This document shows, piece by piece, positions 562-51,854 of a DNA stretch of 64,000 bases. Numbering within the stretch: position 1 is the stretch's first letter; each line of letters starts with the position of its first letter. Below the pieces are notes generated by a model, which ran no database searches, was not told the DNA's origin, and saw only the letters and a program-made list of their open reading frames with translations. The stretch comes from an uncultured Clostridia bacterium (GTDB lineage Bacteria > Bacillota > Clostridia > Oscillospirales > Ruminococcaceae). The position numbers were made by a program, and so were the translations under genes. The stretch is taken from the NCBI GenBank assembly GCA_947627985.1, contig CANQYD010000003.1:24108-88107 (forward strand), read 5' to 3'.

Positions 562-592
562 GCATAACAATCAACAAAATACCGTCGCCAAA

Positions 593-839
593 GGCTATGA
601 CAAAGACGGGACGCCGGAAAAATCGCCTCGAAGAGAGCGGAAGATTGCTGGGACTTCCGCAGGCGCTCGGCAGTCCGGATCACTTTCGAGCCGGAGCTCC
701 GAAATATTAAGGGCTCTCGCGTCCGCGCGTTACAGCGGAAGGCTTTTTATGAGCCGTTAAGAGGCAGGCTTTTTGTCTGCAATTTGAGTGGTACCGCGGG
801 ATATTCTCGTCTCAAAGAAATTCTTTGGGGCGATTTTTT
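593..839 (+). promoter_or_regulatory. T-box riboswitch leader, specifier read as AUC (Ile)
   Basis: K-turn 5' half GGCUAUGACAAAG (593-605) pairs with CUUUCGAGCC (683-692). AGAGAG bulge and distal hairpin present. T-box AATTTGAGTGGTACCGCGG at 781-799. Terminator hairpin plus T-run at 807-839. ATC-A at 679-682 sits in the specifier position. Confidence 0.85.
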
Positions 840-883
840 ATTATCTGCCCCGATCACTTCTAAAGCGTAAGGAGAAGAAGCAC

Positions 884-3157
884 ATGAGCAATCAGTCAGT
901 CAACCAGTTAGTCGAAGTCGCCGAGAGAATCCGCGAAATGCGCGAGATCATGGGCTGGACGACAGCCGAAATGGCGGAAAAGACCGAGGTCGCGGAGGAG
1001 GATTATCTTAAGTATGAGAGCGGTCAGGCAGACCTGCCGTTCACATTCATACATAAGTGCGCCCTCGCTTTTGAAATCGACCTCACCGACCTTCTGGAAG
1101 GTCGTTCGGCGGCAAGGCTTTCAAGCTACACCCTCACAAGAAAGGGTCAGGGTCAGGTCACGGCGCATGAAAAGGGCATCGATATCGCCAACTTAGCCCC
1201 CAAATTCCGCGATAAGATCGCCGAGCCGTATTGGGTAAAGTACGACTACATCGAGGCGCAGCAGAATGTCCCGATCCACCTCACCAAGCACTCCGGACAG
1301 GAATTCGACCTCATCATCTCCGGCAGCCTCAAGGTTCAGGTCGGCAGCCATATCGAGATTCTGAACGAGGGCGACTCAATCTACTACAACTCCTCCACAC
1401 CTCACGGAATGATCGCCGTCAACGGTCGCGACTGCGTGTTCGTAGCGGTCGTACTGCCGGGCGAGGACGACACCGAGGAGACCGCAAGGACCTCCCTGAT
1501 TCAGGCTAACCGTCCCAAGAAGGACACCCTCTTAGCCGAGCGCTTTGTCGATTTTATCGAAGATGAAAACGGCAAGCTCATCGACATGAAATTCCACGAC
1601 ACCGATACCTTCAACTTCGGCTTCGACTGCGTTGACGCGATCGCCGATAAATATCCCGATAAGCTCGCGATGATCCACGTCGACAAGCACAAGGTCGAGC
1701 GCCGGTTCACGTTTAAAGATATCAAACGCGCCTCAAATCAGACCGCCAATTACCTGCGTTCGCTCGGAATAAAGCGGGGCGACAAGGTCATGCTGGTCTT
1801 AAAAAGACATTATCAGTTCTGGTTCGCAATGGTGGCGCTGCATAAACTCGGCGCGATCGCGATCCCCGCGACAAATCAGCTCAAGCAGCACGATTTTGAA
1901 TACCGCTACGACAGAGCGGGCGTCTCGGCGATCCTCTGCACCGCCGACGGCGACGTCGCCGAAATTGCCGAAAAGGCGGCGGAAAATTGCCCGACCGTCA
2001 AGACCAAAATCCTCGTGGGCGGCGCAAGAGAGGGCTGGCGCGATTTCGACAACGAATATCAGCTCTATACCGGAAAATTTGAAAGACCCGAGGACTGCTC
2101 CGCAGGTTCCGAGCCGGCGCTCATGTTCTTCACCTCCGGCACCACCGGCAATCCGAAGATGGCTCAGCATGCGCATACATACGCCCTCGGTCACTTCGTC
2201 ACCGCCAAATACTGGCACTGCTGCGAGCGGGACGGACTTCACCTGACGATATCCGACACCGGCTGGGGCAAGTCGCTTTGGGGCAAGCTCTACGGTCAAT
2301 GGCTCTGCGAGGGCGCCGTGTTTGTCTATGATTTCGATAAATTCGACGCGGCGGATATTCTCCCGATGTTTGCAAAATATAATATCACAACATTCTGCGC
2401 GCCTCCGACCATGCTCAGAATGATGATAAAGGAAGATTTATCCATCTTTGACTTAAGCTCTATCCATCACATGACCACCGCCGGAGAAGCGCTCAACCCC
2501 GAGGTCGCGAAGCAGTTCAAGCAGGCGACGGGGCTTGAGATCATGGAGGGCTTCGGTCAGACCGAGACGACGCTCGTCATCGGCAACTTATACGGCGACA
2601 CCCCGAAATACGGCTCGATGGGCAAGGCTTCGCCGCAGTACGATATCGATATTTTGGACCCCGACGGAAACCCCGTGGCGAACGGCGAGGTCGGCGAGAT
2701 ATGCATAAAGACCTCCGACGCGGTCCCGCTCGGGCTGTTTAAGGAGTATTACCTCGACGAGAGGCTCACAAAAGAGGCTTGGCACGACGGATACTATCAC
2801 ACCGGCGACACCGCGTGGCGCGATGAGGACGGGTATTTCTGGTATGTTTCGAGGATCGACGACGTCATCAAGTCCTCGGGATACAGGATCGGTCCGTTTG
2901 AGATCGAGAGCGTCATCATGGAGCTGCCCTATGTGCTTGAATGCGGCGTTTCGGCTGTTCCCGACGAGATCAGGGGGCAGATAGTCAAGGCGAGCATAGT
3001 GCTCACCAAGGGTACCGTCGCCTCGGACGATCTCAAGAAGGAGATTCAGAACTACGTCAAGAGCCACACGGCGCCCTATAAATATCCGCGCGTGATCGTT
3101 TTCAGGGACGATTTGCCGAAGACGATCAGCGGGAAGATTCAGAGGAACAAACTCTGA
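884..3157 (+). CDS. Fusion protein: XRE-type HTH + cupin domain joined to AMP-forming medium/branched-chain acyl-CoA synthetase (MACS-like)
   Basis: ORF 788-3157. Start set to ATG 884 (AAGGAG upstream, after the T-box terminator). HTH (MGWTTAEMAEKTEV), cupin (HSGQEFDLIISG..HGM), then FFTSGTTGNPK, YHTGD, SSGYRIGPFEIE, PKTISGKIQR. Confidence 0.85.
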   Translation: MSNQSVNQLVEVAERIREMREIMGWTTAEMAEKTEVAEEDYLKYESGQADLPFTFIHKCALAFEIDLTDLLEGRSAARLSSYTLTRKGQGQVTAHEKGIDIANLAPKFRDKIAEPYWVKYDYIEAQQNVPIHLTKHSGQEFDLIISGSLKVQVGSHIEILNEGDSIYYNSSTPHGMIAVNGRDCVFVAVVLPGEDDTEETARTSLIQANRPKKDTLLAERFVDFIEDENGKLIDMKFHDTDTFNFGFDCVDAIADKYPDKLAMIHVDKHKVERRFTFKDIKRASNQTANYLRSLGIKRGDKVMLVLKRHYQFWFAMVALHKLGAIAIPATNQLKQHDFEYRYDRAGVSAILCTADGDVAEIAEKAAENCPTVKTKILVGGAREGWRDFDNEYQLYTGKFERPEDCSAGSEPALMFFTSGTTGNPKMAQHAHTYALGHFVTAKYWHCCERDGLHLTISDTGWGKSLWGKLYGQWLCEGAVFVYDFDKFDAADILPMFAKYNITTFCAPPTMLRMMIKEDLSIFDLSSIHHMTTAGEALNPEVAKQFKQATGLEIMEGFGQTETTLVIGNLYGDTPKYGSMGKASPQYDIDILDPDGNPVANGEVGEICIKTSDAVPLGLFKEYYLDERLTKEAWHDGYYHTGDTAWRDEDGYFWYVSRIDDVIKSSGYRIGPFEIESVIMELPYVLECGVSAVPDEIRGQIVKASIVLTKGTVASDDLKKEIQNYVKSHTAPYKYPRVIVFRDDLPKTISGKIQRNKL

Positions 3158-3740
3158 TAGAAGGCAGAATGTCAGAAGTCAGATGTCAGATTCTGCACTC
3201 AGCCTTAAACGAGACAAGTCAAAAAGGTTTTGCCCCGCTTTTCCTAAAAAAGCGGGCGGGGTCGAGGGGCAGAGCCCCTCGTCGCTCGTCGCAACGAGCG
3301 AAATCCCCAAGCAAGAGGACGGCGGAAGCCGTCGTCTTGCTTAAATCGATTCTAAGCGCAGGAGGGGGGAAATGAAAACAGTCCGGTGGACTGTTTTCAT
3401 CGGGGGAACCCTCGCCGGGGGTTCCCCCAACAAAAAACCGGCGACGAAGTCGCCCGGGAGCCGAGCGAAGCGAGGCTCATAAGCCCCTCCCCTCTCAGGG
3501 GAGGGGTTGGGGTGGGGTCAAAGCCGGAGGGGTGTGGGGAACCCTGCAAGGGTGCCCCACAGCTCGGAAAGGGGTGAGCAGAAGCTGGTTTTGTTGCCAA
3601 TCGCACTTCGCAATCAAAAACGTGGGATTGCTCGTGCTCTTGGACAAAACCCCGCAGGGGTTGTCCCCAATAGCAGCAGGCTTTTAAAAATTGAAAAGCC
3701 CAAATATCTCTCGCGCCGCTTTAAATCACTAAATCCACCT
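3158..3740 (+). repeat. Type I mosaic hairpin element (modules heptamer(rev)-E-C-B-F-A-D)
   Basis: E module 3211-3349, C 3372-3428, B 3440-3454, F 3484-3517, A 3522-3562, D 3578-3668. Each module recurs at 7.1, 12.4, 16.3(rev), 26.0 and 45.1 kb. Confidence 0.9.
3498..3517 (+). other. Canonical G-quadruplex motif
   Basis: GGGG A GGGG TT GGGG T GGGG; first two runs also pair with CCCCTCCCC at 3484-3492. Confidence 0.7.
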
Positions 3741-3812
3741 TTCCGCCCCTCCCACCTGCACCATTTTAAAACCACACCATTTTTGCCCCAACAAATCCCC
3801 CAAGGAGCCCCC

Positions 3813-4481
3813 ATGAATTCATTCAAACGCGTCTCACTTTTCGCCGGTCACTACGGCTCCGGCAAGACCAATTTGGCGGTCAACTACGCGATCGAACTGA
3901 AAAAACACTTCTACCGGGTCGTCATAGCCGACCTCGACATCGTCAACCCCTACTTCCGCACAAAGGATTCGGCTGAGCTCCTCGAAAAAGCCGGGATCGA
4001 GACCGTCTCCCCCGAGTTTGCAAACTCAAACGTCGATCTCCCGGCGCTCCCCTCGGAACTCTACGGCGTCGTCCAGAACCGCCATAGATACGCCGTTTTG
4101 GATATCGGCGGGGACGATCGCGGCGCATATGCCTTGGGGCGGTTTGCTCCCTATATTTTGGAAGAAAATGATTTTGAGATGATCTACGTCGCCAACTTCT
4201 GCCGACCGCTTACCCGCGAGCCCGAAGAGGCTTTAGAGGTCATGCGGGAGATAGAATCCGCGGGAGGCATCCCCTTTACGGCGATCGTCAACAACACAAA
4301 TCTTTCGCACCTCACCGATGAAAAAACCGTCGCCGAGGGTTATGCAAAAAGCAAAAGGCTTGCCGATATGAGCGGGCTTAAGCTTTTATTCACATCAGTC
4401 GAAAAGAGGCTTGCGGGAAATATCGACCTCGAAAACGTCTTCCCGATAGAGCTTCAGAGGAAATATTACGAAATTCTTTAA
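3813..4481 (+). CDS. P-loop NTPase (MinD/CooC-like SIMIBI class), function unknown
   Basis: ORF 3507-4481 trimmed to ATG 3813 (AAGGAG 6 nt upstream; upstream part lies in repeat). Walker A GHYGSGKTN. Confidence 0.75.
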   Translation: MNSFKRVSLFAGHYGSGKTNLAVNYAIELKKHFYRVVIADLDIVNPYFRTKDSAELLEKAGIETVSPEFANSNVDLPALPSELYGVVQNRHRYAVLDIGGDDRGAYALGRFAPYILEENDFEMIYVANFCRPLTREPEEALEVMREIESAGGIPFTAIVNNTNLSHLTDEKTVAEGYAKSKRLADMSGLKLLFTSVEKRLAGNIDLENVFPIELQRKYYEIL

Positions 4482-4494
4482 GGAGGAGAGAAAA

Positions 4495-4701
4495 ATGCCG
4501 AAGCTGACGTTCAACGTCGATCTTTGCAAGGGCTGCGGGCTTTGTGTCAGCGCATGTCCGAAAAAGCTCCTTGTGATCGCTAAGGACAAAATCAACAAAA
4601 AAGGTCATTCTCCCGCCGAGATCACCGATCAGTCACAGTGCATAGGCTGCGCGTTTTGCGCGACAATGTGCCCCGACTGCGTGATAACGGTAGAGAAGTA
4701 A
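4495..4701 (+). CDS. 2-oxoacid:ferredoxin oxidoreductase delta subunit (2x[4Fe-4S] ferredoxin)
   Basis: CKGCGLCVSACP and CIGCAFCATMCP motifs, 68 aa, first of a D-A-B-C gene order. Confidence 0.85.
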   Translation: MPKLTFNVDLCKGCGLCVSACPKKLLVIAKDKINKKGHSPAEITDQSQCIGCAFCATMCPDCVITVEK

Positions 4702-4714
4702 GGAGGTCGAAGGA

Positions 4715-5773
4715 ATGGCAAAGGTTTTAATGAAGGGCAACGAGGCTATCGCGGAAGCCGCGATAAGAGCGGGCTGCCGCCACTATTTCGGATACCCCAT
4801 CACCCCTCAGACGGAGGTTGCCGCATACATGGCGAAGAGAATGCCCAAAATAGGCGGCACTTTCCTGCAAGCCGAGAGCGAAATTTCGGCGATAAACATG
4901 GTCTACGGCGTATCGAGCGCGGGACTTCGGGTGATGACGAGCTCCTCAAGCCCCGGAGTATCTTTAAAGCAGGAGGGCATTTCCTATCTTGCCGGGTCCG
5001 ATCTTCCGGCGCTTATCGTCAACGTACAGAGAGGCGGACCGGGTCTTGGGGGAATCCAGCCCTCGCAGTCCGACTATTTCCAAGCGACCAAGGGAGGAGG
5101 ACACGGCGACTATCACCTCATCGTTTTAGCTCCCGCTTCTGTTCAGGAGATGGCTGATCTGACGGTGAAGGCGTTTGACCTTGCCGATAAGTACAGAATG
5201 CCCGCCATGCTCCTTGCCGACGGCACAATGGGACAGATGATGGAGCCCGTCGAGCTTCCCGAAGAGTGCGCGCACTCTGTAGATAAGCCCTGGGCTCTGA
5301 CGGGCACTCAGGGAAAGAGAGAGCATAACATCATAAACTCCCTCTATTTAGTGCCTGAACAGCTCGAGGAAAAGAATCTTGAAAGATATGAAAGATATAA
5401 GACAGTCGAGCGGGACGAGGTAATGTATGAGGAGTACATGCTCGATGACGCCGACGTCTGCGTAGTCGCGTTCGGGATCGCCGCAAGAGTATCCAAAAAC
5501 GCCATCACCGCGGCAAGGGCAAAGGGAATCAAAGCGGGTCTCATAAGACCCATCACCCTCTATCCCTTCCCGAAGGATATCATCAGAAAAACCGCAGAGA
5601 ATGTCAAGGGCTTTGTCTCGGTCGAGCTCTCGATGGGTCAGATGATCGACGACATCAGGCTCGCGGAAGAATGCAAAAAGCCCGTTACGCTCTGCTCAAG
5701 GGTGGGCGGAATGATCCCGTCGCCGGAAGAGGTCTTGAAGGCGATCGAAGATATGGAAGGAGGAAAATTCTGA
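4715..5773 (+). CDS. 2-oxoacid:ferredoxin oxidoreductase alpha subunit
   Basis: 352 aa, [16 protein letters not shown].. N-terminus typical of Kor/Vor/Por alpha; stop overlaps next start (TGATG). Confidence 0.85.
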
Positions 5774-6523: not shown

Positions 6524-7057
6524 ATGGCTTACACGCAGATACTCATCGCCGGATTCGGCGGTCAGGGAGTGCTCTTTGCGGGGAAAGTCCTTGCGTATAA
6601 AGGTCTTGAGGAGAACAAGCAGATATCATGGCTTCCGTCATACGGACCCGAGATGAGAGGCGGCACCGCAAACTGCTCGGTAATCGTTTCGGACACCCCG
6701 GTCGGCTCGCCTATCGTCTCCGAGCCGGACATACTGATCGTCATGAATCTGCCGTCGCTTGATAAGTACGAGAATGCGGCAGTCCCCGGGGCGAAGGTGT
6801 TCATCGACTCTTTCCTCATCGAGAGAAAAATCGAGCGCACCGACATTGAAGCGCACTACATTCCGGCTACGAAGATAGCGCGGGAGATGGGTATTCCGAC
6901 GCTTGCGAACATGGTTCTTTTGGGCAAGGTCATCAAGGAGACGGGGGTAGTCTCGATGGAAGGGCTAAAGGACGCGCTTGCGAAGACGGTTTCGGCGAAG
7001 CACCCCGAGCTTTTGGAGGCGAATCTGAAGGCGATACAGGCAGGTTATGATTATTAA
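6524..7057 (+). CDS. 2-oxoacid:ferredoxin oxidoreductase gamma subunit
   Basis: 177 aa, ILIAGFGGQGVLFAGK.. typical gamma N-terminus; starts 1 nt after beta stop. Confidence 0.85.
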   Translation: MAYTQILIAGFGGQGVLFAGKVLAYKGLEENKQISWLPSYGPEMRGGTANCSVIVSDTPVGSPIVSEPDILIVMNLPSLDKYENAAVPGAKVFIDSFLIERKIERTDIEAHYIPATKIAREMGIPTLANMVLLGKVIKETGVVSMEGLKDALAKTVSAKHPELLEANLKAIQAGYDY

Positions 7058-7320
7058 AAGGTTAATTAGCGCTTGAGCTGTGTAAGAGACAAGTCAAAAA
7101 GTTCGCCAGCCTTTCAAGGCTGCGGGGTCAAGGGGCGGCGCCCCTTGTCGCGCGTCGCAACGCGCGAAATCCCAAGCAAGAGGACGGCGTGAGCCGTCGT
7201 CTTGCGCATATCGGTCAAAAGAGGGCGACGAAGTCGCCCGAAGCCGGAGGGGTGTGGGGAACCCTGCAAGGGTGCCCCACAGAGCCGAGCGAAGCGAGGC
7301 TCAAAAAGCCCCTCCCCACC

Positions 7321-7340
7321 GGGGAGGGGTTGGGGAGGGG
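7321..7340 (+). other. Canonical G-quadruplex motif
   Basis: GGGG A GGGG TT GGGG A GGGG, preceded by CCCCTCCCC-ACC (7309-7320). Confidence 0.7.
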
Positions 7341-7528
7341 AAAGCCGGAGGGGGTTTGGGGGAACCCCGCAGGGGTGCCCCCACAGCCCGGAAAGGGGTA
7401 TGGGGAAAACCCGCAGGGGTTGTCCCCAATAGCAGGAGGCATTAAAAACTGCAAAGCCCAAATATCTCTCACATCGCTTTAAAGCATTACAGCCGAGCGA
7501 AGCGAGGCTCGAAAAGCCCCTCCCCACC

Positions 7529-7549
7529 GGGGAGGGGTTGGGGAGGGGG
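7529..7549 (+). other. Canonical G-quadruplex motif
   Basis: GGGG A GGGG TT GGGG A GGGGG, preceded by CCCCTCCCC-ACC. Confidence 0.7.
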
Positions 7550-7874
7550 AAAGCCGGAGGGGGGTTGGGGGGACCCCGCAGGGGTGCCCCACAGCACGGA
7601 AAGGGGTAAGCAGAAGCTGGTTTTGTACCTGCTCGACTGCCCTCGGCGGAAACGCTCGCCTCGGTTGTCTCGCAGACAAAACCCCGCGTCTGCGGGAAAA
7701 CCCCGCAGGGGTTGTCCCCAGCACAACTAATACGTTGTGCGAGACCTAAGACTAAAACATTTTTACAAGGTCAGGACGTGAAGCCGGAGGGGCGTGGGGA
7801 ACCCCGCAGGGGTGCCCCACAGTGCCGAGCGAAGCGAGGCACCCCCCATTCCCCCACTTTTCTTCAAATCCCTC

Positions 7875-9470: not shown

Positions 9471-9569
9471 ATTCTGCCTCAATCATAGGTTGTAATTAGA
9501 TGGAAGGCTTGCTTCAGGGCTTGGCGCCCCTGCCGACCCTCGATAGAAGCAGTAGGCAAAAGATAAAAA

Positions 9570-9604
9570 TCTGACCTCTGACTTCTAACCTCTGTCCTCT
9601 GTGC
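9570..9604 (+). repeat. CT-rich heptamer array (5 units)
   Basis: TCTGACC TCTGACT TCTAACC TCTGTCC TCTGTGC. Confidence 0.8.
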
Positions 9605-9611
9605 GACCAAC

Positions 9612-9704
9612 GGGAGCACGGGGCGAAGCCCCGCTGCCGCAGGCAGCGCGCCGACGCTTCGCGTCGGCGGTGCGACTTCGTCGCACGGGCTTCGCCCTGC
9701 TCCC
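9612..9704 (+). repeat. Clamped triple-hairpin module with extra outer stem
   Basis: GGGAGCA (9612) / TGCTCCC (9698). Clamp GGGCGAAGCCC 9621-9631 / GGGCTTCGCCC 9687-9697. Hairpins GCTGCC-GCA-GGCAGC, CGCCGACGC-TTC-GCGTCGGCG, GTGCGAC-TTC-GTCGCAC. Confidence 0.85.
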
Positions 9705-9957: not shown

Positions 9958-11364
9958 ATGAAAAAACTTATCGCAATCCTGCTAACGGCGGCCATGCTGC
10001 TTTCAGCTCTTCCGACGGCTGTTTTTGCCGACGGCGGCTTCGGTCTCAAAGCCGATTCCGACGGCACTGCCGTCACTCTATCGTGGGAAAAAGTCCCGGG
10101 CGCCGGAAGCTACACCGTCTATTACAACAGAAGCGGCGCAAAGCCCAAATCCCTCGGCAGCTTTAAATCGCTAAAACTCAAAGTCAACGGGCTCAAATCC
10201 GGCGTTTCCTATTCCTTTAAGGTCGTGTCGGATAACGGTTTCGAGACCGATGACCTCAGCATAACCCCCGAGACCGGCAAGAAAAAATCCGTCGAAAAAT
10301 ATCCCGAAAAAGAGGAATTTGAGACCGGAAAAGAAGCTGCGGAAGAATTCGGAGCCGGATACAACATCGGCAACGCCTTCGACTCCATCGATTCGAGCAA
10401 GCCGACCATGATGAACGAGCCGCTTGACCGCCTCGAGACCGCTTGGGGCAACCCCGTCATCAACGAGGATTACATCAAGGGGATCAAAAAAGCCGGCTTC
10501 GGCGCGGTCCGTCTTCCGGTGACATGGGGGAAAGCCGCAGATTCCGAGGGCAACGTCAGAAAGGACTACCTCGACCGCATTCAGGAGGTCGTCGATATGA
10601 TCCTTGAGGAGGATATGTACTGCATCATCAACGTCCACCACGACACCGGTTCCGACGGCTGGATCAGAGCTTCCGACAGCTCGTTCGGAAAGTACGGCGA
10701 CCGCTTCGGCAAAATCTGGGAACAGGTTGCCGAGAAGTTTAAGGATTACGGCGAAAAACTGCTCTTTGAGTGCATGAACGAGACCTTAAACGACAACGGC
10801 GAGTGGTATACCGATAAAAAAGCGGACTTCGACGCCATCAAAAAATGGCAGAAAGTTTTTGTGGATACCGTGCGCGCCTCGGGCGGCAACAATGAGCAGA
10901 GAAATCTGATCCTCTCGACCTACGCTGCTTCCTCGTCGTCGGGGATCATCAACGCCTTCGAGCTTCCCTCAAAAGTCGAGCCGGAGCACATCGTCTTAGA
11001 GGTCCACAACTACGATCCGCAGGGGTTCTCGTGGAGAGACGTCGGATACGACACCGAGAGGAGCAGCTGGGGCACCTCTCAGGATAAAAAACAGGTCGAC
11101 GACTTCCTCTACACCTTAAGTAAAAAGGCGGATTCGCTCGGCGTCGGAGCGATCGTCGGCGAATTCGGCTCGGTAGACAAGAGTAACGAATCAGAGCGCG
11201 CAAAGCAGGCGGAATATATGTATAAAAACGCCCATAAATACGGCGTCGCGGTATTCTGGTGGGACAACGGCTCGGCTAACGATTTCAGGATTTTTGACCG
11301 CACAAACGGCAAGGCGACGATGCCGAAGATCGTAAAAGCAATAGTAAACGCCGTAGATGATTAA
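9958..11364 (+). CDS. Secreted GH5 endoglucanase/cellulase with N-terminal Fn3-like domain
   Basis: Signal peptide MKKLIAILLTAAMLLSALPTAVFA; GYNIGNAFD, VRLPVTW, IINVHHD, ECMNE (acid/base), HNYDP, GEFG (nucleophile). Confidence 0.85.
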   Translation: MKKLIAILLTAAMLLSALPTAVFADGGFGLKADSDGTAVTLSWEKVPGAGSYTVYYNRSGAKPKSLGSFKSLKLKVNGLKSGVSYSFKVVSDNGFETDDLSITPETGKKKSVEKYPEKEEFETGKEAAEEFGAGYNIGNAFDSIDSSKPTMMNEPLDRLETAWGNPVINEDYIKGIKKAGFGAVRLPVTWGKAADSEGNVRKDYLDRIQEVVDMILEEDMYCIINVHHDTGSDGWIRASDSSFGKYGDRFGKIWEQVAEKFKDYGEKLLFECMNETLNDNGEWYTDKKADFDAIKKWQKVFVDTVRASGGNNEQRNLILSTYAASSSSGIINAFELPSKVEPEHIVLEVHNYDPQGFSWRDVGYDTERSSWGTSQDKKQVDDFLYTLSKKADSLGVGAIVGEFGSVDKSNESERAKQAEYMYKNAHKYGVAVFWWDNGSANDFRIFDRTNGKATMPKIVKAIVNAVDD

Positions 11365-11500: not shown

Positions 11501-12211
11501 ATGACTAAGAAGATTCTTGCTGCCATCGTCGCAGTGATGATGGTACTCGCACTCAGCGTCACCGCTTTTGCCGCGTCTATCGACCTCGTCGATGGCTGCG
11601 TTGCCAACAATGACGGCGAATTCGTCGTTGCCGACGGTTCCGTAACTTCCAGCGGCACCAGCTTCAGCGTTAAGCTTGCCGAGGCTGTTCCGGACGGAGA
11701 CACCGTTACCGTTCACATCAAGGGCTCTTCCGACGGCGACTTCAGAGTATGGCTTGCCGCAGGTACTGCCACCTTCTCCAACGAGCCTCTTTGGAAGGCT
11801 TCCGAGCAGGGCGTCACCACTCCCGGCGAGTTCGACGTCACCTTTGATCTTACCGCTTTCCCGAAGGACGGAACCGGCACTGCCGCAGACTGCATCATGT
11901 TCAAGGCTCCTTCCTACGACTCCAAGCTCTCCAACTTCAAGCTGACCTTCCTCTCCATCAATGGCGACGAGGCTCCTGCTGCCGAGGCTGAGGCTGAGGA
12001 AGCTCCCGCCGAGGCTGAGGCTGAAGCCGAGCCCGAGGAAGCTCCCGCTGAGGCTGCCGAGGAGACCACTGCTGAGGCTCCCGCAGAGGCTGAGACCACT
12101 GCCGAGGCTCCTGCCGAGACCGAGACCAAGGCTCCTGCCACCGGTCTTGCCCTCGCCGTAGTTCCCGCAGTCATGGCTCTTGCTGCCGTTGCAGTTTCCA
12201 AGAAGCACTGA
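11501..12211 (+). CDS. Small secreted surface protein, paralog 1 (signal peptide, beta-rich domain, EAPAE linker, PxTG-type C-terminal sorting signal)
   Basis: MTKKILAAIVAVMMVLALSVTAFA ... ETKAPATGLALAVVPAVMALAAVAVSKKH. Confidence 0.85.
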   Translation: MTKKILAAIVAVMMVLALSVTAFAASIDLVDGCVANNDGEFVVADGSVTSSGTSFSVKLAEAVPDGDTVTVHIKGSSDGDFRVWLAAGTATFSNEPLWKASEQGVTTPGEFDVTFDLTAFPKDGTGTAADCIMFKAPSYDSKLSNFKLTFLSINGDEAPAAEAEAEEAPAEAEAEAEPEEAPAEAAEETTAEAPAEAETTAEAPAETETKAPATGLALAVVPAVMALAAVAVSKKH

Positions 12212-12257
12212 TTTTAACGACAGGCGATAACAGAAAATAAGTCGTAAAAAACTTCCG

Positions 12258-12292
12258 GAAAGGACCCCCGCGCAGGGGGTTCTTTCTTTTTA
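12258..12292 (+). terminator. Intrinsic terminator of paralog 1
   Basis: 12-bp stem GAAAGGACCCCC / GGGGGTTCTTTC, loop GCGCA, then TTTTT. Confidence 0.8.
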
Positions 12293-12839
12293 GGGGTTAG
12301 GGGATAGATGATTAGAGGATAGAGATATGCGACAGGGCTTGCGGGACAAAGCGGGGTCTGAGGGGAGGGGGAGGACAGGATCTTCGTCTTCCCCGAGTTG
12401 AGACAAGGCAAAAAGGTTTTGCCCCGCTTTTCCTCAAAAAGCGGGCGGGGTCGAGGGGCGGCGCCCCTCGTCGCCCGTCGCAACGGGCGAAATACTTTAA
12501 GCAAGAGGACGCTGTAAAGCGTCGTCTTGCTTTTATCGTTCAAAAGAGGGCGACGAAGTCGCCCGAGAGCCGGAGGGGTGTCAGCAGAAGCTGGTTTTGT
12601 AACCAATCGCACTTCGCAATCGTAAACGATTGATTGCTCGTGCTCTTGGACAAAACCCCGCGTCTGCGGGAACCCCGCAGGGGTGCCCCACAGCCGGAGG
12701 GAGTATGGGGGAACCCTTGCAAAGGGATCCCCCAACAAAAACCGGCGACGAAGTCGCCCGGAGCCGCGCGAAGCGAGGCTCGAGCCCCCTCTCCCTTGGG
12801 AGAGGGGGTTGGGGGTGAGGGTGAAAGCCCCTCCCCACC

Positions 12840-12859
12840 GGGGAGGGGCTGGGGAGGGG
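12840..12859 (+). other. Canonical G-quadruplex motif
   Basis: GGGG A GGGG CT GGGG A GGGG after CCCCTCCCC-ACC. Confidence 0.7.
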
Positions 12860-13102
12860 AAAGCCCGGAAAGGGGGCTTGGGGAAAACCCTGCAAGGGTT
12901 GTCCCCAACATAGTAGCAGCGTAGAAGGACTTATATAACGTCTTAAATATAAATATAGTAGTCCCCGCCCTCTCCTACCCCTTGTTAAAAGGTATTCGTT
13001 CATTTTCCCGCCGGAAAATGAACTCATGCTATTTTAAGCAGACCCCCACCCCCATCGAAATCTGTGCAGACTTATAGTAGAGCGGAGCCCCCTCCCCTAA
13101 AA

Positions 13103-13128
13103 GGGGGGAGGGGGCTTGGGGGTGGGGG
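13103..13128 (+). other. G-quadruplex motif
   Basis: GGGGGG A GGGGG CTT GGGGG T GGGGG after CCCCCTCCCC-TAAAA. Confidence 0.7.
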
Positions 13129-13506
13129 TAAAAGCCGGAGGGGTGTGGGGAACCCCGCAGGGGTGCCCCACTGAGCCCCCTCTCCCTTGGGAGAGGGGCA
13201 AGAGCCGGGGGGCGTGGGGAACCCCGTAGGGGTGCCCCACAGTTGTTGAGCAGAGAGAAAAGATAGTAGCAGAAGATTACCTTTAAGTTTAGGAAAGGGG
13301 GGCTTAGGGGGAAAACCCTTTCCAAAAGGGCTTTTCCCCTCATAAGTCAGAGCCGAATTTTAAAAAATCAGAGCTAACAATTGCCGATTTAAATCGTTAA
13401 ATCTACTACGACGCTCCACTTTGCCCGCATACCCCATTTGAATAGTCCCCCATAATCCCCACCCTCACAATAAATCAAAAAATCCACCCCAAAATGCAAA
13501 AAGCTA

Positions 13507-13535: not shown

Positions 13536-13588
13536 AACAGTGTAGCTTGCGGGAAACCGCACTAACAAATGAAAACGGAGGATTTTTT

Positions 13589-14128
13589 ATGAAAAAGATT
13601 TTAGCTGTTATCGTAGCCGTCATGATGGCTATGACTCTCGTTATGAGCGTGTCAGCCGACGAGTATGCAGGCGAGGTCCCTGCCGGTTCCGAGTGGTGGT
13701 ATGAGGTCATGATCAAGGACATCATTCCGCTTGAGAACCTTGAGGGTCACTCTTCCATCACTTTCGGCTGCGACTGCAACTTCGCTGCCGGTTATAACGA
13801 AGGCGACACTTGGATTCAGAGAACCGACCTGAGCACCGAGCCCATCACCATCGATCTTACTACCGCTACCATCAACGACGATTCCAAGATCATGCTCCAG
13901 AAGGGCTCTGCCGGTGCTTTCACCATCACCTACACTCTTGATGACGGCGCTGCCGCTCCTGCCGAAGAGACCCCTGCCGAGGCTCCTGCTGAGACCGAAG
14001 CTGAGGCTCCCGCCGCTGAGGAGACTCCCGCCGAGACTGAGACCAAGGCTCCTGCTACCGGTCTTGCCCTCGCTGTAGTTCCCGCCGTCGTGGCTCTTGC
14101 CGCTGTCGCGGTTTCCAAGAAGCACTAA
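13589..14128 (+). CDS. Small secreted surface protein, paralog 2
   Basis: ORF 13547 trimmed to ATG 13589 (GGAGGA upstream); MKKILAVIVAVMMAM.. ; C-terminus ETKAPATGLALAVVPAVVALAAVAVSKKH. Confidence 0.85.
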   Translation: MKKILAVIVAVMMAMTLVMSVSADEYAGEVPAGSEWWYEVMIKDIIPLENLEGHSSITFGCDCNFAAGYNEGDTWIQRTDLSTEPITIDLTTATINDDSKIMLQKGSAGAFTITYTLDDGAAAPAEETPAEAPAETEAEAPAAEETPAETETKAPATGLALAVVPAVVALAAVAVSKKH

Positions 14129-14243: not shown

Positions 14244-14297
14244 GTTTTCATAGATGCGGTACGCCGCACTAAAAGATGAAATATGGAGGAAATTACC

Positions 14298-14951
14298 ATG
14301 AAGAAAATTCTTGCAATTGCCATAGCCGTCGTTATGGTTATGGCGCTCGCAGTCACCGCTTCCGCAGAGACTATTTACGAGTACACTTCCCCGGTCAAGG
14401 TCGCTTTCGGCTGGACCACCCTTATCCAGAACGGCGACGCCAACGCCACCGACTTCTTTAAGGCGATCGGCACCGAGGGCGCTGTCATCGAGATGATCGC
14501 TACCGACCTTGTCGACGGCGACAGACAGGCTGAGGTCGTTGACGCTTGGTTCCAGATCTGCACTCAGGACACCGTAGGTTGGACTGAGGCTGGCGGTCTC
14601 AAGACCGAGGGTATCGGCGAGACCTACGGCTTCACCGATGAAGGTTATGTCATCACCATTCCCGCCGCAGCTTTCAACGAGATGGTCGTAAACAGCGGCG
14701 TTGATCCCGCCAACCTCTCCATCATTCTCAACGCCGGCGGTTCTTGGGCTAAGTCCGCTTCCAAGATCATTCTGAGAGTTTCCGTTCCCGACGAAGCCGC
14801 CGAGGCTCCCGCAGAAGAGACTCCCGCCGAGGAAGCTCCCGAAGAAGCTCCCGCCGAGACCGAGACCAAGGCTCCTTCCACCGGTATCGCGCTTGCTGTA
14901 ATTCCCGCCGTCATGGCTCTTGCAGCTGTTGCCGTTTCCAAGAAGCACTAA
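14298..14951 (+). CDS. Small secreted surface protein, paralog 3
   Basis: ORF 14283 trimmed to ATG 14298 (GGAGGA upstream); MKKILAIAIAVVMVMALAVTASA; C-terminus ETKAPSTGIALAVIPAVMALAAVAVSKKH. Confidence 0.85.
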   Translation: MKKILAIAIAVVMVMALAVTASAETIYEYTSPVKVAFGWTTLIQNGDANATDFFKAIGTEGAVIEMIATDLVDGDRQAEVVDAWFQICTQDTVGWTEAGGLKTEGIGETYGFTDEGYVITIPAAAFNEMVVNSGVDPANLSIILNAGGSWAKSASKIILRVSVPDEAAEAPAEETPAEEAPEEAPAETETKAPSTGIALAVIPAVMALAAVAVSKKH

Positions 14952-15154: not shown

Positions 15155-15212
15155 ACAATTATGGTTACGCTGACAAATAGCGCGACTAATTAAAGTTATG
15201 GAGGAATATTTT

Positions 15213-15938
15213 ATGAAGAAAATTCTTGCGATCGTCGTCGCTATGATGATGGTCATGGCTCTTTCGGTAAGCATTTTCGCTGACGATATCGACGTATCCG
15301 GCATGGACGTTGCTTTCGAGTGGACCGAAGGCAAGGCTGCACATGACTGGTGGACTGCCAAGGACGTTTTCAGCGCTGACGATTACGCCAAGTTTGTCGA
15401 GGCTCTCGGCATGGACGGCGCTGTCGTTGAAGTCGCCGGCAACAACCCCGGTGCAGGCGGAGCGATGACCAACTTCAACTTTGACTGGGACGGTCACGGC
15501 ATTCTGATGGCCGGCGACGGTCAGTATCCTATGGGCGATTTCGATTGCTTCGCTTCCATGGATCAGCTCAGAGCTGACGGCAAGGTTCCGGATACTATCG
15601 ACAACGTAATTCTTCAGTTCAACATCTATCAGGATGAGACTGACGTAACCGTTTCCAAGGTTGCCGTTTATGTTCCTGCCGGTGCTGCTCCCGAGGCTGA
15701 GGCTGAGGCTGAGGAAACTCCCGCCGAGACCGAGGAAGCTCCTGCTGAGGCTGAAGCTCCCGCCGAAGAGACCCCTGCCGAGGCTCCTGCTGAGACCGAG
15801 GCTGAGGCTCCCGCCGCTGAGGAGACCCCTGCTGAGGCTCCCGCTGCCGAGACCAAGGCTCCTGCCACCGGTTTAGCTCTCGCGGTTGTTCCCGCTGTCA
15901 TGGCTCTTGCCGCTGTTGCGGTTTCCAAGAAGCACTAA
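15213..15938 (+). CDS. Small secreted surface protein, paralog 4
   Basis: ORF 15198 trimmed to ATG 15213; MKKILAIVVAMMMVMALSVSIFA; C-terminus ETKAPATGLALAVVPAVMALAAVAVSKKH. Confidence 0.85.
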   Translation: MKKILAIVVAMMMVMALSVSIFADDIDVSGMDVAFEWTEGKAAHDWWTAKDVFSADDYAKFVEALGMDGAVVEVAGNNPGAGGAMTNFNFDWDGHGILMAGDGQYPMGDFDCFASMDQLRADGKVPDTIDNVILQFNIYQDETDVTVSKVAVYVPAGAAPEAEAEAEETPAETEEAPAEAEAPAEETPAEAPAETEAEAPAAEETPAEAPAAETKAPATGLALAVVPAVMALAAVAVSKKH

Positions 15939-15985: not shown

Positions 15986-16145
15986 TGATTTTTTGTGATT
16001 TGAGGCGCCCGGGGGTGCCTCTTTTTTTGGGGGAATCTTTCAAGATGGCAAAAGGAGGGGATTTTGCCTCGCTTCGCTCGGCAAACCCAAGGGGAGAACC
16101 CTTTATAAAAGGGTTCTCCCCTATAACCCCTCTCCTAAAATCTTT

Positions 16146-16166
16146 CCCCCTCCCCAACCCCTCCCC
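16146..16166 (-). other. G-quadruplex motif on minus strand
   Basis: Plus strand reads CCCCC T CCCC AA CCCC T CCCC. Confidence 0.65.
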
Positions 16167-16310
16167 GGCGGGGAGGGGCTTTTCGCCTCGCTTCGCTCGG
16201 CTCCCGGGCGACTTCGTCGCCGGTTTTTTGTTGGGGGAACCCCCGGCGAGGGTTCCCCCGATGAAAACAGTCCCCCGGACTGTTTTCATTTCCCCCTCCT
16301 GCGCTAATTA

Positions 16311-16348
16311 TGAAAAAAGCAAGACGACGGCTTACGCCGTCCTCTTGC
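16311..16348 (-). terminator. E4 hairpin acting as intrinsic terminator downstream of proC
   Basis: GCAAGAGGACGGCGTAAGCCGTCGTCTTGC followed by TTTTTT when read on the minus strand. Confidence 0.6.
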
Positions 16349-16500
16349 TTAAGGGATTTCGCCCGTTGCGACGGGCGACCAAGGGCTCCGCCCTTGGATT
16401 CCGCCCGCTTTTTAAGGAAAAGCGGGGCAAAACCTTTTTGACTTGTCTTTTAGATGGTAAACTGCTGAATCTGACTTCTGACCTCTCTGTTTTCTGCCTT

Positions 16501-17295
16501 CTACTTGCCCAGCTCCTTGGACCTTCTCTCGCACGCCCTCGCGGCGTCGATCAGAATCCCCTCGAACCCGCGCTCGTCAAGCACCTTGACCGCCTCGACC
16601 GTCGTGCCGTTCGGGGTGCAGATATTTTTCTTGAGCGTCTCCGCCGGGGTGCCGCTCTCAAGCACCATCTTCGCCGAGCCGAGCACCGTCTGCGCCGCAA
16701 AAATCTCCGCCTGCGCCTCGCTCATGCCAGCCTCGACCGCGTACTTCTTCAGCGCGATGATGAACGCGTACACATACGCGGGACCCGACCCCGACACCGC
16801 CGTCACCGCGTCAAACAGGCTCTCGTCGAGAACCTCAGCCCGCCCGAAGCTCTCAAAAATCCTCGCGATCCCGAGAATTTCCTCCCGGCTGACCATTTCA
16901 TTCCCGCAAATCCCGGTCATGCCCTCGCCCACCATCGCCGGGGTGTTCGGCATGATCCTGATGATCTTCCTGCTGCCAAAAAGTCCCTCAAGCGTCGAAA
17001 TCTTCTTGCCCGCGATGATGGAGCATATTATCGCATTTTGGGGGATAAGTACTGCGATCTCTTTCGCAAGATCGGCTAAGTCCGCAGGTCTGACTGCCAA
17101 AATGACCGCGTCGGTGCCGCTCAGAGCCGCGCCGTAATCATCAAAAACGCTTATTCCAAGGGACTTTGCGTGTTCCTTGGCTTCCGCAGACTTGTCGCAT
17201 ACCCGGATATCCCCCGGCTTTAAAACCTCGGCACGTACAGCGCCCGAGGCTATCGCGGATCCCATGTGCCCGAATCCTATAAAAGTTAAATTCAT
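16501..17295 (-). CDS. proC: Pyrroline-5-carboxylate reductase
   Basis: 264 aa; IGFGHMGSAIASG NAD(P)-binding N-terminus, MPNTPA, SGSGPAY, VCTPNGTT motifs. Confidence 0.9.
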   Translation of the reverse strand: MNLTFIGFGHMGSAIASGAVRAEVLKPGDIRVCDKSAEAKEHAKSLGISVFDDYGAALSGTDAVILAVRPADLADLAKEIAVLIPQNAIICSIIAGKKISTLEGLFGSRKIIRIMPNTPAMVGEGMTGICGNEMVSREEILGIARIFESFGRAEVLDESLFDAVTAVSGSGPAYVYAFIIALKKYAVEAGMSEAQAEIFAAQTVLGSAKMVLESGTPAETLKKNICTPNGTTVEAVKVLDERGFEGILIDAARACERRSKELGK

Positions 17296-25097: not shown

Positions 25098-25904
25098 ATG
25101 TTAGACTGGTTAATCAATTTTGCAAACACCTACCTCGTTGACTTCGGCGTAAAGATCATCTTAGCGCTGCTTCTTCTGGTGATCGGCTTGAAGGTCGTCA
25201 AGGTCATCATCAAGAAAATCGGCAAGAGCAAGGGCTTTCTGAAGCTCGACACGAACATCGCGGCGCTGATACTCTCGGGTCTCAAGCTTGTTCTGAACAC
25301 GCTGATAATCATCATCGCGGTGCAGATCATCGGCGTTCCGTCGGCGACGGTCATCGCGGCTCTCGGCTCCTGCGGCTTGGCTATCGGTCTTGCCTTGCAG
25401 GGCGGGCTCTCAAATATCGCGGGCGGCGTGATGATCATGGTATTCAAGCCGTTCCACATCGGCGATTTCGTCTCGACATCGGCTGGAGACGGCACGGTCG
25501 AGGATATCGGGCTGTTTTACACGAAGCTCTGCACCATCGACAATCGGCTGATAAATATTCCGAACTCGGTGCTCTCGTCGTCCACCGTCACAAACCTCTC
25601 CGCAAAGCCGGTCAGAGGGCTTGATATCGAGGTCGCGGTCGCATACGGAAGCGATCTCGAAGCTGCAAAGAAGGCGCTTTTAGAGCTTGCCGACAGGAGT
25701 GAGCTGGTCCTTAAGGACCCGGCGCCGATGGCGTTCATCAACGAGCACAGGGAGTCGTCGGTCGTCGTCACGCTGAGGGTTTCGGTGAAGGGAAGCGATT
25801 ACTGGGCTGCGAGGTTTGAGCTGATGCAGAACTCGCTCAAGGCAGTCACCGACGCGGGCGTGACCATTCCGCTGCCGCAGCTTGATGTGCACATGAGAGG
25901 GTAG
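25098..25904 (+). CDS. Small-conductance mechanosensitive channel (MscS family)
   Basis: 268 aa; three N-terminal TM segments, FKPFHIGDFV, NIPNS motif. Confidence 0.85.
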   Translation: MLDWLINFANTYLVDFGVKIILALLLLVIGLKVVKVIIKKIGKSKGFLKLDTNIAALILSGLKLVLNTLIIIIAVQIIGVPSATVIAALGSCGLAIGLALQGGLSNIAGGVMIMVFKPFHIGDFVSTSAGDGTVEDIGLFYTKLCTIDNRLINIPNSVLSSSTVTNLSAKPVRGLDIEVAVAYGSDLEAAKKALLELADRSELVLKDPAPMAFINEHRESSVVVTLRVSVKGSDYWAARFELMQNSLKAVTDAGVTIPLPQLDVHMRG

Positions 25905-26320
25905 AAGTTAGAGAAGTAGAGGTTAGAGACTGCTGGCATCCTTCAGAGAGATAAGTCGAAAAGGTTTTGCCCCGCTTTTCCTCAAAAAGCGGGCGAGAGT
26001 CCAGAGGCGAGGAGCCTCTGGTCGCCCGTCGCAACGGGCGAAATCCCAAAGCAAGAGGACGGCGTAAGCCGTCGTCTTGCTTTTTATTATTCAAAAAGCG
26101 CAGGAGGGAGCATAAGCTGGTTTTGTTGCTGCTCGCACTTCGCAATCGTAAACGATTGATTGCTCGTGCTTGCAGACAAAACCCCGCGTATGCGGATGAA
26201 AACAGTCCGGTGGACTGTTTTCATCGGGGGAACCCTCGCCGGGGGTTCCCCCAACAAAAAACCGGCGACGAAGTCGCCCGAAGCCGAGCGAAGCGAGGCT
26301 CAAATGCCCCCTCTCCCTTA
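25902..26320 (+). repeat. Type I mosaic element (heptamer(rev)-E-D-C-B, truncated in F)
   Basis: E 25947-26090, D 26108-26195, C 26198-26255, B 26264-26278, GAGCGAAGCGAG 26286; ends in GCCCCCTCTCCCTTAG. Confidence 0.9.
26051..26086 (+). terminator. E4 hairpin = intrinsic terminator downstream of mscS
   Basis: GCAAGAGGACGGC-GTAA-GCCGTCGTCTTGC followed by TTTTT. Confidence 0.65.
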
Positions 26321-26329
26321 GACGGGGTG

Positions 26330-26516
26330 TCATAAGGAAGTCGAAACTAATTTTTTGAAGCGATGTGACTTCGGTCACGCCGTTTCTCTTTGCTTTTCCG
26401 CTTGCAAGAGCTCGTTTACGGGTATCCTCATAAATCTTGATGAATAGGCGGTCAAGTTCCGCGAGCCTCTTTTCATTTTGTGAGTTTTCGATTAGCATAC
26501 TTAATGATTTCAGCAC
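26330..26516 (-). pseudogene. Possible remnant of a large serine recombinase (DUF4368-like segment)
   Basis: Minus-strand translation ..EKRLAELDRLFIKIYED.. resembles the coiled-coil region of Tn-associated serine recombinases; no catalytic domain; ORF runs into the repeat. Confidence 0.25.
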
Positions 26517-41438: not shown

Positions 41439-43160
41439 ATGGAAAGAATCACTAAATACATCAAGCCCTACACCGGCTACATAATCCTGACGGTTCTGAT
41501 AAAGCTCTTCGGAGCTGTGTTGGAACTGTTTATCCCCTATTTTATGGAAATTATTTTAGACGACGTCGTCCCGCGGGGCGTAAAGTCCACCATCTTCATC
41601 TACGGCGGGCTGATGCTTTTATGCGCGATCGGCTGTCTTGTCTGCAACATCGGAGCCAACCGAATGAGCGCCGTCAGCTCGGGAAAGATCACAAGAAAAC
41701 TCCGCTACGACCTCTTCGACAAGCTTGAGCGGCTCTCTGCGGGTCAGATGGACCGCCTGACCGTGCCTTCAGCCGAATCGCGGCTCACAAGCGACACATA
41801 CAACGTAAACCAGCTTTTGGCGAGAATCCAGCGGCTCGGGATCAGGGCGCCGATACTCCTTTTGGGAGGCGTTGTGATGACCCTGACGATGGACCCCGTC
41901 CTCGCTCTGATCCTCATTGCCCTGCTGCCTTTGATCGGCGTTATCGTCTACGCCGTCACAAAAAAATCCGTCCCTCTTTACAAAGAAGAGCAGACGGTGC
42001 TCGACCGCGTGGTGCGGGTATTGCAGGAAAATATCACCGGCGTGCGGGTCATCAAAGCCCTCTCAAAGACCGACTACGAGCGGGAGCGCTTCGGAGGCGT
42101 GAACGACGAGCTTACGGCAATCGATCAGAAAGCCGGAATGATAACAGCCGCCACCAACCCCTCGACCTCCCTTGTTCTGAACATCGGGCTCACGCTGGTC
42201 GTTCTGATCGGCGCGTGGAGAGTTGCGGGAGGGCAGACGAAATCCGGCGTCATCATCGCCTTTTTGCAGTATTTTGTGATGATCTTAAACGCCATGCTCG
42301 GCATAACGAGGATTTTCGTGATGTGGTCCAAAGGCGAGGCTTCGGCTCACCGCGTCGCCGAAGTTCTGGAAATGCCTGAGGACCTCGTGCCCGTAGATTC
42401 TGCCGAAGATCATGCCGATAATCCTCCGCATATCGAATTTAAAAACGTCAGCTTTTCCTATACCGGCAAAGGCGACAGCTTGGAAAATATCAGCTTTAAA
42501 CTTTACCGCGGTGAAAGTCTCGGGATAATCGGCGAGACGGGAGCCGGGAAATCAACGGTTTTAAGCCTTCTCATGCGCTTTTACGACGTCGATTCCGGCG
42601 AGATTCTTATCGACGGCAGGGACGTGAAATCATATTCAAAAGACGAGCTGACATCAAAATTCGGAGCCGTTTTCCAAAACGATTTTGTGATGGAAGGGAC
42701 GGTCGCCGACAATATCCGCTTCTTCCGGGATTTATCGGATGACGATCTATCCCGCGCTTCTTCCGACGCTCAGGCTGCGGAATTTATCGCGCACAGGGCA
42801 AAGGGAATGCAGTCCGACGTGGCGGTCAGGGGAAACAACCTCTCGGGAGGTCAGAAACAGCGCCTACTGATCGCAAGAGCGCTTGCCGGAAATCCCGAAA
42901 TTTTACTTTTGGACGACTCCTCCTCGGCTCTTGACTACCGAACCGACGCGGAACTCAGAAAGGCTTTAAAACGCGGATACTCCGGGGTCACGACGGTCAC
43001 GGTCGCGCAGAGGGTCAGTTCAATCAGAAGCTGCACTAAGATTTTGGTGCTTTCCGACGGCAAAGAGATCGGTCTCGGGACTCATGAAGAGCTCATGCAA
43101 AGCTGCGAGGAGTACCGCTTAACAGCCGAGCAGCAGATGGGAGGTGCCCAAAGTGCCTAA
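41439..43160 (+). CDS. ABC exporter, fused TMD-NBD (heterodimer partner 1)
   Basis: 573 aa; GETGAGKST, LSGGQKQRLLIARAL, LLLDD. Confidence 0.85.
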   Translation: MERITKYIKPYTGYIILTVLIKLFGAVLELFIPYFMEIILDDVVPRGVKSTIFIYGGLMLLCAIGCLVCNIGANRMSAVSSGKITRKLRYDLFDKLERLSAGQMDRLTVPSAESRLTSDTYNVNQLLARIQRLGIRAPILLLGGVVMTLTMDPVLALILIALLPLIGVIVYAVTKKSVPLYKEEQTVLDRVVRVLQENITGVRVIKALSKTDYERERFGGVNDELTAIDQKAGMITAATNPSTSLVLNIGLTLVVLIGAWRVAGGQTKSGVIIAFLQYFVMILNAMLGITRIFVMWSKGEASAHRVAEVLEMPEDLVPVDSAEDHADNPPHIEFKNVSFSYTGKGDSLENISFKLYRGESLGIIGETGAGKSTVLSLLMRFYDVDSGEILIDGRDVKSYSKDELTSKFGAVFQNDFVMEGTVADNIRFFRDLSDDDLSRASSDAQAAEFIAHRAKGMQSDVAVRGNNLSGGQKQRLLIARALAGNPEILLLDDSSSALDYRTDAELRKALKRGYSGVTTVTVAQRVSSIRSCTKILVLSDGKEIGLGTHEELMQSCEEYRLTAEQQMGGAQSA

Positions 43161-45009: not shown

Positions 45010-45029
45010 TAAGATTTTTGGAAAGCCAT

Positions 45030-51836: not shown

Positions 51837-51854
51837 TGTATCACTAATATTAAA

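Follow-up and report, generated by a model that had tools for sequence, protein, structure and literature searches.

The 64-kb stretch of clostridial DNA analyzed here (referred to below as the window) carries six copies of a hairpin-rich module, designated E, each located behind a gene and oriented in the direction of that gene. A sequence-only reading of the window had suggested that this module is transcribed as a structure of the 3' untranslated region (3' UTR). The question raised by the locus is whether E is a dedicated structured RNA of mRNA 3' ends or a repeat of some other kind.

The E family and its genomic context

The six copies of E listed in that reading are all recovered, both by alignment and with R1, a covariance model built from these same six copies. 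In the R1 matches, copy 1 spans positions 3205 to 3350 on the plus strand (169 bits; fold z-score, -6.8) and begins 47 nt past the stop codon of an AMP-binding ligase gene (788 to 3157), copy 2 (7080 to 7215, plus strand) begins 22 nt past the POR gamma gene (6524 to 7057), and copy 3 (12394 to 12540, plus strand) begins 182 nt past an unannotated paralog gene (11501 to 12211). Copy 4 (16309 to 16455) is on the minus strand, 45 nt past proC (16501 to 17295, also minus), whereas copies 5 (25942 to 26090) and 6 (45026 to 45171) are on the plus strand, 37 nt past mscS (25098 to 25904) and 16 nt past an ABC exporter gene (43144 to 45009), respectively. The sense orientation of all six copies holds as previously given, and so do the stop-to-module distances (26 to 53 nt in five copies and 188 nt in the copy placed at 12400). 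The six-copy alignment has a mean column identity of 78% over approximately 180 nt, and the 24-nt signature GTCGCNNNNCGCANNNNGCGAAAT occurs exactly 6 times in the window, compared with 0.09 occurrences expected by chance. An R1 search with all filters off finds no further copies in the window; its weaker matches there are palindromic hairpins seen from the opposite strand. Five of the six copies have no terminator ahead of the module. Between the paralog gene and copy 3, the sequence contains a terminator-shaped plus-strand hairpin, GGACCCCCGCGCAGGGGGTTC followed by TTTCTTTTT, at approximately 12256 to 12295, whose minus-strand counterpart is also listed in the scan for terminator-like sites.

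Each window copy folds into four hairpins, as claimed, and RNAalifold recovers all four. In copy 1, these are, on the plus strand, E1 (3234 to 3256, CCCGCTTTT/AAAAGCGGG), which forms the outer, gene-proximal end of the module and has an inner stem that covaries family-wide; E2 (3263 to 3281, CGAGGGGC-AGA-GCCCCTCG); E3 (3282 to 3301, TCGCTCGT-CGCA-ACGAGCGA), followed by an AAATCCC linker; and E4 (3309 to 3342), a 13-bp palindrome with a G-G mismatch. Two details of the original description need correction: E3 is present with a stem of 8 bp (TCGCnnnn/nnnnGCGA) rather than 6 bp, and the G-G mismatch of E4 is indeed conserved, in five copies rather than four. A T-rich tail follows E4 in three or four of the six window copies. 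The fold energy of copy 1 is -74 kcal/mol, with z-scores of -6.8 for RNA, -6.7 for the opposite strand, and -9.7 for DNA; both strands of E fold equally well. A GGGG/CCCC helix closing E2 and E3 was also predicted in copy 1, showed no covariation by eye in the family, and was dropped.

Family-wide, the conserved unit consists of the three adjacent hairpins E1 to E3, about 85 nt in total. Its fixed parts (loops, stem bases, and linkers) comprise GGTC, GTCGC, the CGCA loop, and GCGAAATCC; the inner pairs of the stems are free to change and remain perfectly complementary. There are no U-tracts in E1 to E3. E4 is specific to the window lineage: its columns are mostly gaps in other genomes, where the position is taken by unrelated short hairpins or by nothing. 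Genome-specific subfamilies of E are apparent in the family alignment.

A scan for the 24-nt signature, with one genome per species, finds at least 119 stretches, nearly all of them in Clostridia, including both metagenome-assembled genomes and isolates. Among the matches listed, nearly all sources are Ruminococcus, Oscillospiraceae, Acutalibacteraceae, Butyricicoccus, and unnamed Clostridia or Eubacteriales, from gut and rumen; to the named groups, which are abundant gut anaerobes, E adds a large interspersed-repeat family. Full-length modules are identified by R1 (lowest E-value, 1e-24) in about 95 species-level assemblies as counted by accession prefix, almost all from Oscillospirales-type gut Clostridia. 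The model also picks up extra copies that do not match the signature, and Butyricicoccus pullicaecorum has 7 model matches within 8 kb. Eight signature matches outside Clostridia (in Rhizobium, Acetobacteraceae, Arenimonas, Ciceribacter, Pirellulales, Casimicrobium, Acidobacteriota, and Solibacteraceae) have no R1 match at an E-value of ≤0.01 and are therefore regarded as chance matches. Viral contigs account for 20 signature matches, with real modules on only five contigs, in the same convergent-pair layout as elsewhere (see below); these five contigs show no sign of a phage linkage of E and look like host or prophage-flank DNA. Two contigs binned as Prevotella sp. NALB_7961_1 (L008 and L016) carry full E modules with a GC content of 65 to 69% and are probably mis-binned Clostridia contigs.

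Searched against Rfam 15 at the gathering threshold, the whole window yields only two T-box matches and none for E; in E-value mode, the best match in the region from 3150 to 3800 reaches 29 bits, far below the cut-off of 137, and is noise. No description of E was found in the literature on REP or MITE elements in Ruminococcaceae or Firmicutes or in searches for the motif sequence itself, nor does E appear in the first 200 of the 408 supplementary files of a human-microbiome structured-RNA catalogue (PMC8040213). As far as the Rfam and literature searches show, the E family is undescribed.

Genes in all loci were called by a home-made codon-usage log-odds caller trained on long open reading frames, so that the calls are approximate and the orientation counts given below carry some error. 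By these calls, E copies are intergenic, with a gene-call overlap in 1 of 111. The proposed rule that the module is always sense to its upstream gene is true in the window but fails family-wide, where 67 of 105 copies (64%) are on the same strand as the upstream gene and 38 are on the opposite strand. From the E1 side, the median distance is 61 nt where the module faces a stop codon and 98 nt where it faces a gene start, compared with about 250 to 265 nt from the E3 side to a gene boundary of either kind. Thus, the E1 side abuts a gene, the E3 side is followed by 100 to 400 nt or more of other modules, and E behaves as the outer end of a longer element. Single E copies are sense in 58 cases and antisense in 28 (approximately 2:1), with 18 located between convergent genes versus 4 between divergent ones and, in co-directional contexts, 20 sense and 11 antisense. 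Terminator-like hairpins are found ahead of approximately 17% of the copies, including window copy 12394, and after E on the same strand in approximately 36% (39/109) and on the opposite strand in 30% (33/109).

The flanking genes are unrelated housekeeping genes, with 127 Pfam families among 104 proteins and without enrichment, and no transposase or RAYT gene is seen among the 25 Pfam families listed for these 104 proteins. A cis-regulatory RNA (riboswitch or leader) would be tied to one gene family and lie upstream of it in sense; E is linked to no gene family, and of 80 downstream genes, only 38 share its strand and 42 do not. A riboswitch is ruled out by the anatomy of E together with its gene context. 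An integron attC site was rejected as well, given that E folds as four independent hairpins and not as one long imperfect palindrome (R''-L''...L'-R') with extrahelical bases.

The inner mosaic modules capped by copy 1 occupy positions 3351 to 3780 (plus strand) and form a chain of GC-rich hairpins assigned to repeat families D4 to D20; the equivalent blocks are at 7216 to 7850, 12541 to 13340, 26091 to 26400, 45172 to 45620, and 15990 to 16308. One inner module, AAAACAGTCC-GGTG-GACTGTTTT, has the shape of a bidirectional terminator. It is found after three window copies of E (3375 to 3397, 16264 to 16286, and 26199 to 26221) and after 13 copies in other genomes (loci L028, L001, L067, and L075, among others), usually 110 to 300 nt from the start of the E match, and its sequence is conserved across several genera, with no stem covariation. 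Other modules nearby in the mosaic (3462 to 3478, 7285 to 7301, 3440 to 3454, 7223 to 7239, and similar ones) form short hairpins whose loops read CGAAG or GCGAAGC, a motif that would correspond to the unusually stable d(GCGAAGC) DNA mini-hairpin.

Two E copies in the same intergenic region always converge, with E1 facing outward (23 copies, none divergent and none direct). Such pairs mostly lie between co-directional genes, with one arm antisense to every neighboring transcript, and represent the arms of foldback composites of 240 to 750 nt. In the composite at positions 4409 to 5152 of locus L047, the outer 91-nt arms are 99% complementary, and the inner blocks are mirrored too; the composite in L028 has the same layout. 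MITE-like terminal inverted repeats are therefore present in composites from other genomes but not in the window mosaics, which are single-armed and have no inverted partner E inside. Likewise, the REPIN-like inverted doublet is the sole arrangement where a region is shared, yet most copies of E are single, including all six in the window. No direct repeat that could represent a target-site duplication flanks the 16 composite ends.

Covariation and replacement of hairpins

The original observation that both sides of each stem change together and that the CGCA loop and the GAAAT linker stay fixed holds for the window and for about 110 further copies from about 95 other genomes. Among the six window copies, two-sided changes are seen at 13 of the 44 predicted pairs. 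In a model-based alignment of 117 distinct E copies, the pairs in E3 are Watson-Crick in 805 cases, G-U in 5, A-C in 2, and of other kinds in none, and those in E2 are Watson-Crick in 859, G-U in 16, A-C in 4, and other in 21. Summed over the E1 inner stem, E2, and E3, there are 29 G-U and 26 A-C pairs among approximately 2,900, which puts the G-U share at only about 1%. As an independent check, 90 copies were aligned with MAFFT, which is blind to structure. In this alignment, E3 is 99.3% paired, its four inner pairs show two-sided changes in 18 to 53 sequences each, and the covariation score is 0.346 for the true structure versus ≤0.24 for partners slid by 1 to 3 columns; 0 of 500 shuffles attain the observed score. 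The search pattern is partly responsible for the constancy of GTCGC, CGCA, and GCGAAAT, and the copies found by the model alone extend the covariation to outer pairs (e.g., GCCGC...GCGGAAT). The E feature is real and statistically solid, and its hairpins are maintained.

A strand-specific structured RNA tolerates G-U but not A-C pairs and has a single orientation; E has G-U and A-C pairs in near-equal numbers and 38 antisense copies next to 67 sense ones. Because G-U pairs are rare and not above A-C, pairing is equally good on both strands and lacks an RNA strand signature. This pattern is the one that a DNA palindrome gives, unlike that of the usual one-strand RNA. The clean covariation in E, lacking such a signature, means that covariation alone is not proof of a functional RNA, which is a caution for noncoding RNA discovery: 99% pairing and dozens of double changes can come from hairpin swapping among DNA repeats.

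Such swapping is seen at orthologous sites. Loci L147 and L151 are 95% identical over their genes and have retained composites at both shared intergenic sites. Between the two, all of E1, E2, and E3 in one arm have given way to other variants, and an inner hairpin shows three pair changes, each perfectly compensated. In one E3, two neighboring pairs have changed with full compensation (GCTC/GAGC versus GTCC/GGAC), and blocks of 50 to 140 nt come and go, with the linkers and approximately 100 nt of each flank identical. In strains of the window organism with a 100% identical MscS protein, the site behind mscS carries an E1 of the 45036 type, not the 25942 type. Hairpins are reassorted within the window as well, where copies 16319 and 45036 have the E2 type CCAAGGG in common and differ in E1 and E3. 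Some of these swaps come from short-read assemblies, which can be chimeric inside repeats. With whole hairpins swapped and linkers and flanks identical, point mutation followed by compensation is not an easy source of the changes; template switching in quasi-palindromes is an established process. Neither orthologous comparison (L147 with L151 and the MscS strains) reveals an empty site, both showing occupied ones.

Short-read contigs of the window organism (among L120 to L131, metagenome contigs with window genes) stop inside E1, an indication that the repeat fragments assemblies, and E explains why short-read assemblies of the organisms that carry it break right behind genes. Contig L128 is identical to the window sequence up to position 7300 and then departs, inside a repeat module, into MBOAT, DUF4093, and holA genes that are absent from the window, which is either a rearrangement or a chimeric join.

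Nature of the E module

E is an interspersed intergenic hairpin repeat rather than a new class of RNA. At six copies per 64 kb, it is a high-copy extragenic hairpin set in mosaics, as REP and BIME elements are. Like E, the REP/BIME/REPIN elements are GC-rich hairpins in high copy number that lie strictly outside genes, mostly at gene 3' ends, combine with other short motifs into mosaics, and conserve their structure with compensated stem changes at sites that persist over long evolutionary times. Their unit is the inverted doublet, an arrangement that E shows where two copies share an intergenic region; REPINs are mobilized by RAYT transposases (PMC3116915, PMC3337134, PMC3733652). Unlike REP, E has no GTAG or CGTC tag, its consensus containing GGTC and GTCGC (the tetranucleotide CGTC is confined to the window copies at 3211 and 12400, as CTCGTCGC, and the family consensus is TGGTCGC), and its unit has three different hairpins with fixed loops instead of one. 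The E arms are 85 to 150 nt long and 90 to 560 nt apart, in contrast to a total of approximately 100 nt for a REPIN, with no RAYT gene nearby among the 25 families listed for the 104 flanking proteins. The hosts are Firmicutes anaerobes rather than Proteobacteria, and a single E sequence family is found in at least about 90 species, in contrast to the usual species or genus specificity of REP families.

Foldback MITEs, the pneumococcal BOX, and bcr1 of Bacillus cereus are noncoding, modular, intergenic elements with stable predicted folds and genome-specific subfamilies, often cotranscribed with their neighbors. E resembles these comparators (reviewed in PMC3184786; the details are general knowledge) in its modular intergenic nature, stable folds, subfamilies, and, in composites, long terminal inverted arms, and differs from them in that no target-site duplication was found and in its far wider host range. 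With intrinsic (Rho-independent) terminators, E shares the position behind genes and the GC-rich stems, as well as the T-rich tails of E4 and of the ACAGTCC module; it differs from them in the lack of a U-tract in E1 to E3 and in having fixed loops, sequence conservation across species, and antisense and paired copies. On balance, we lean toward regarding E as the terminal, gene-proximal module of a mosaic repeat family of the REP/BIME/REPIN/foldback-MITE kind in Oscillospirales-type Clostridia and not as a dedicated 3' UTR RNA.

The principal alternative, that E is a transcribed 3' UTR RNA selected at the RNA level, whose primary function is to stabilize the upstream mRNA against 3'-to-5' decay or to shape its 3' end, appears to us possible but rather unlikely. 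It draws on the facts that all six window copies are sense, five of them 16 to 47 nt past a stop codon with no terminator between; that sense copies make up 67 of 105 family-wide, at a median of 61 nt from the stop, and 58 of the single copies versus 28 antisense; that the hairpins are very stable (-74 kcal/mol); and that a terminator-like hairpin follows approximately 36% of the copies, with the T-rich tail of E4 in three or four window copies. The two orientation biases, six of six in the window and approximately 2:1 among single copies, count against a DNA repeat, and the bias of the single copies could reflect RNA-level selection. However, 36% of the copies are antisense to the upstream gene, the convergent pairs between co-directional genes leave one arm outside any sense transcript, G-U pairs are not in excess over A-C, 17% of the copies (12394 among them) lie behind a terminator, E is not tied to any gene family, and whole hairpins are replaced between close relatives. 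As a general rule, then, the 3' UTR assignment does not stand; cotranscription of sense copies remains plausible, with five window copies lacking a preceding terminator.

Transcription figures differently in a second alternative, according to which the composite serves as a portable cassette for bidirectional termination or insulation, its E hairpins and the AAAACAGTCC...GGACTGTTTT module stopping transcription from either side and separating neighboring units. The convergent, E1-outward geometry would indeed present the same order of hairpins to polymerases from either side, composites contain perfect hairpins between an A-tract and a T-tract, regions with gene 3' ends are preferred (18 versus 4), and terminator-like sites lie 3' of E on both strands (39 and 33 of 109 copies). 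We nevertheless find this cassette doubtful: E1 to E3 themselves have no U-tracts, many genes already own a terminator ahead of the element, and it explains neither why the loops and linkers are conserved throughout an order while the stems vary freely nor why 400 to 900 nt of hairpins would be needed. A third idea starts from the type I-C CRISPR repeats, which have the form GTCGC-stem-CGCA-stem-GCG...ATTGAAAT; E3, with its GTCGC start, CGCA-like loop, GCG stem end, and AAAT tail, would be a relic or mimic of such a repeat, and the module would interact with Cas proteins. Beyond this resemblance, neither the window nor any of the 151 loci contains an I-C-type repeat or an array, the E copies are dispersed with irregular spacing, and E lacks the 7-nt TGGATTG segment of the repeat handle, so that E shows none of the regular direct repeats, unique spacers, and ATTGAAA handle of a CRISPR array; this origin is highly improbable.

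If E is a mosaic DNA repeat, its hairpins would matter as folded nucleic acid that is alike on both strands, most simply as extruded or single-stranded DNA. Fixed loops and linkers combined with free but complementary stems suggest recognition of the folded structure by a protein. The two strands do not differ in their pairing, copies occur antisense and in pairs, and E sits at the end of an element, all of which points to the DNA level. Either a transposase-like enzyme or a host factor could serve as the putative trans-acting, structure-specific protein. Whole hairpins may pass between copies by recombination or conversion at the conserved linkers or, alternatively, by arm-to-arm template switching; either route would make the changes look compensatory and leave mismatched intermediates almost absent. 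E has no known parent insertion sequence, and no mobilizing enzyme, target-site duplication, or empty site was found; the elements may be old and largely immobile.

The elements would settle at gene ends, and a sense copy behind a gene without a terminator (five of six in the window) is probably carried on the mRNA 3' end, where its GC-rich hairpins would block 3' exonucleases or aid termination. REP elements, when transcribed, can act as mRNA 3' stabilizers. In E, an effect on mRNA ends would be a by-product, possibly co-opted later as described for REP. A broader proposal, which is tentative and in our judgment unlikely, is that Oscillospirales have an order-wide, vertically persistent hairpin-repeat system, an analogue of REPIN-RAYT unrelated to it in sequence, in which a putative structure-specific protein reads the fixed loops and linkers of E1 to E3. 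The stems would be actively diversified or swapped, each as a complete and perfectly paired unit, through linker-guided conversion or arm-to-arm template switching and at a pace far above that of change in the surrounding DNA. If such a dedicated protein exists, it would extend host-repeat associations of the REPIN/RAYT type to Firmicutes.

Other features of the window

Tandem repeats of approximately 285 nt (TRF period of 284, 2.5 copies, 87% match) are located at positions 3 to 440 and 50986 to 51688, directly upstream of the two T-box leaders (588 to 817 and 51850 to 52089), and match no Rfam family; a related copy is found at 9483 to 9635, before the gene at 9958 to 11364. In the region from 588 to 3157, the T-box leader precedes an open reading frame that combines HTH_19, Cupin_2, and AMP-binding ligase domains. 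This ligase, which does not belong to the aminoacyl-tRNA synthetases, represents an unusual T-box target; the open reading frame is long and may consist of two genes. Four paralogous small genes (11501 to 12211, 13547 to 14128, 14283 to 14951, and 15198 to 15938) are found around and between the plus-strand E copy at 12394 and the minus-strand copy at 16309. Their products have no Pfam match and carry low-complexity repeats rich in Ala, Glu, and Pro.
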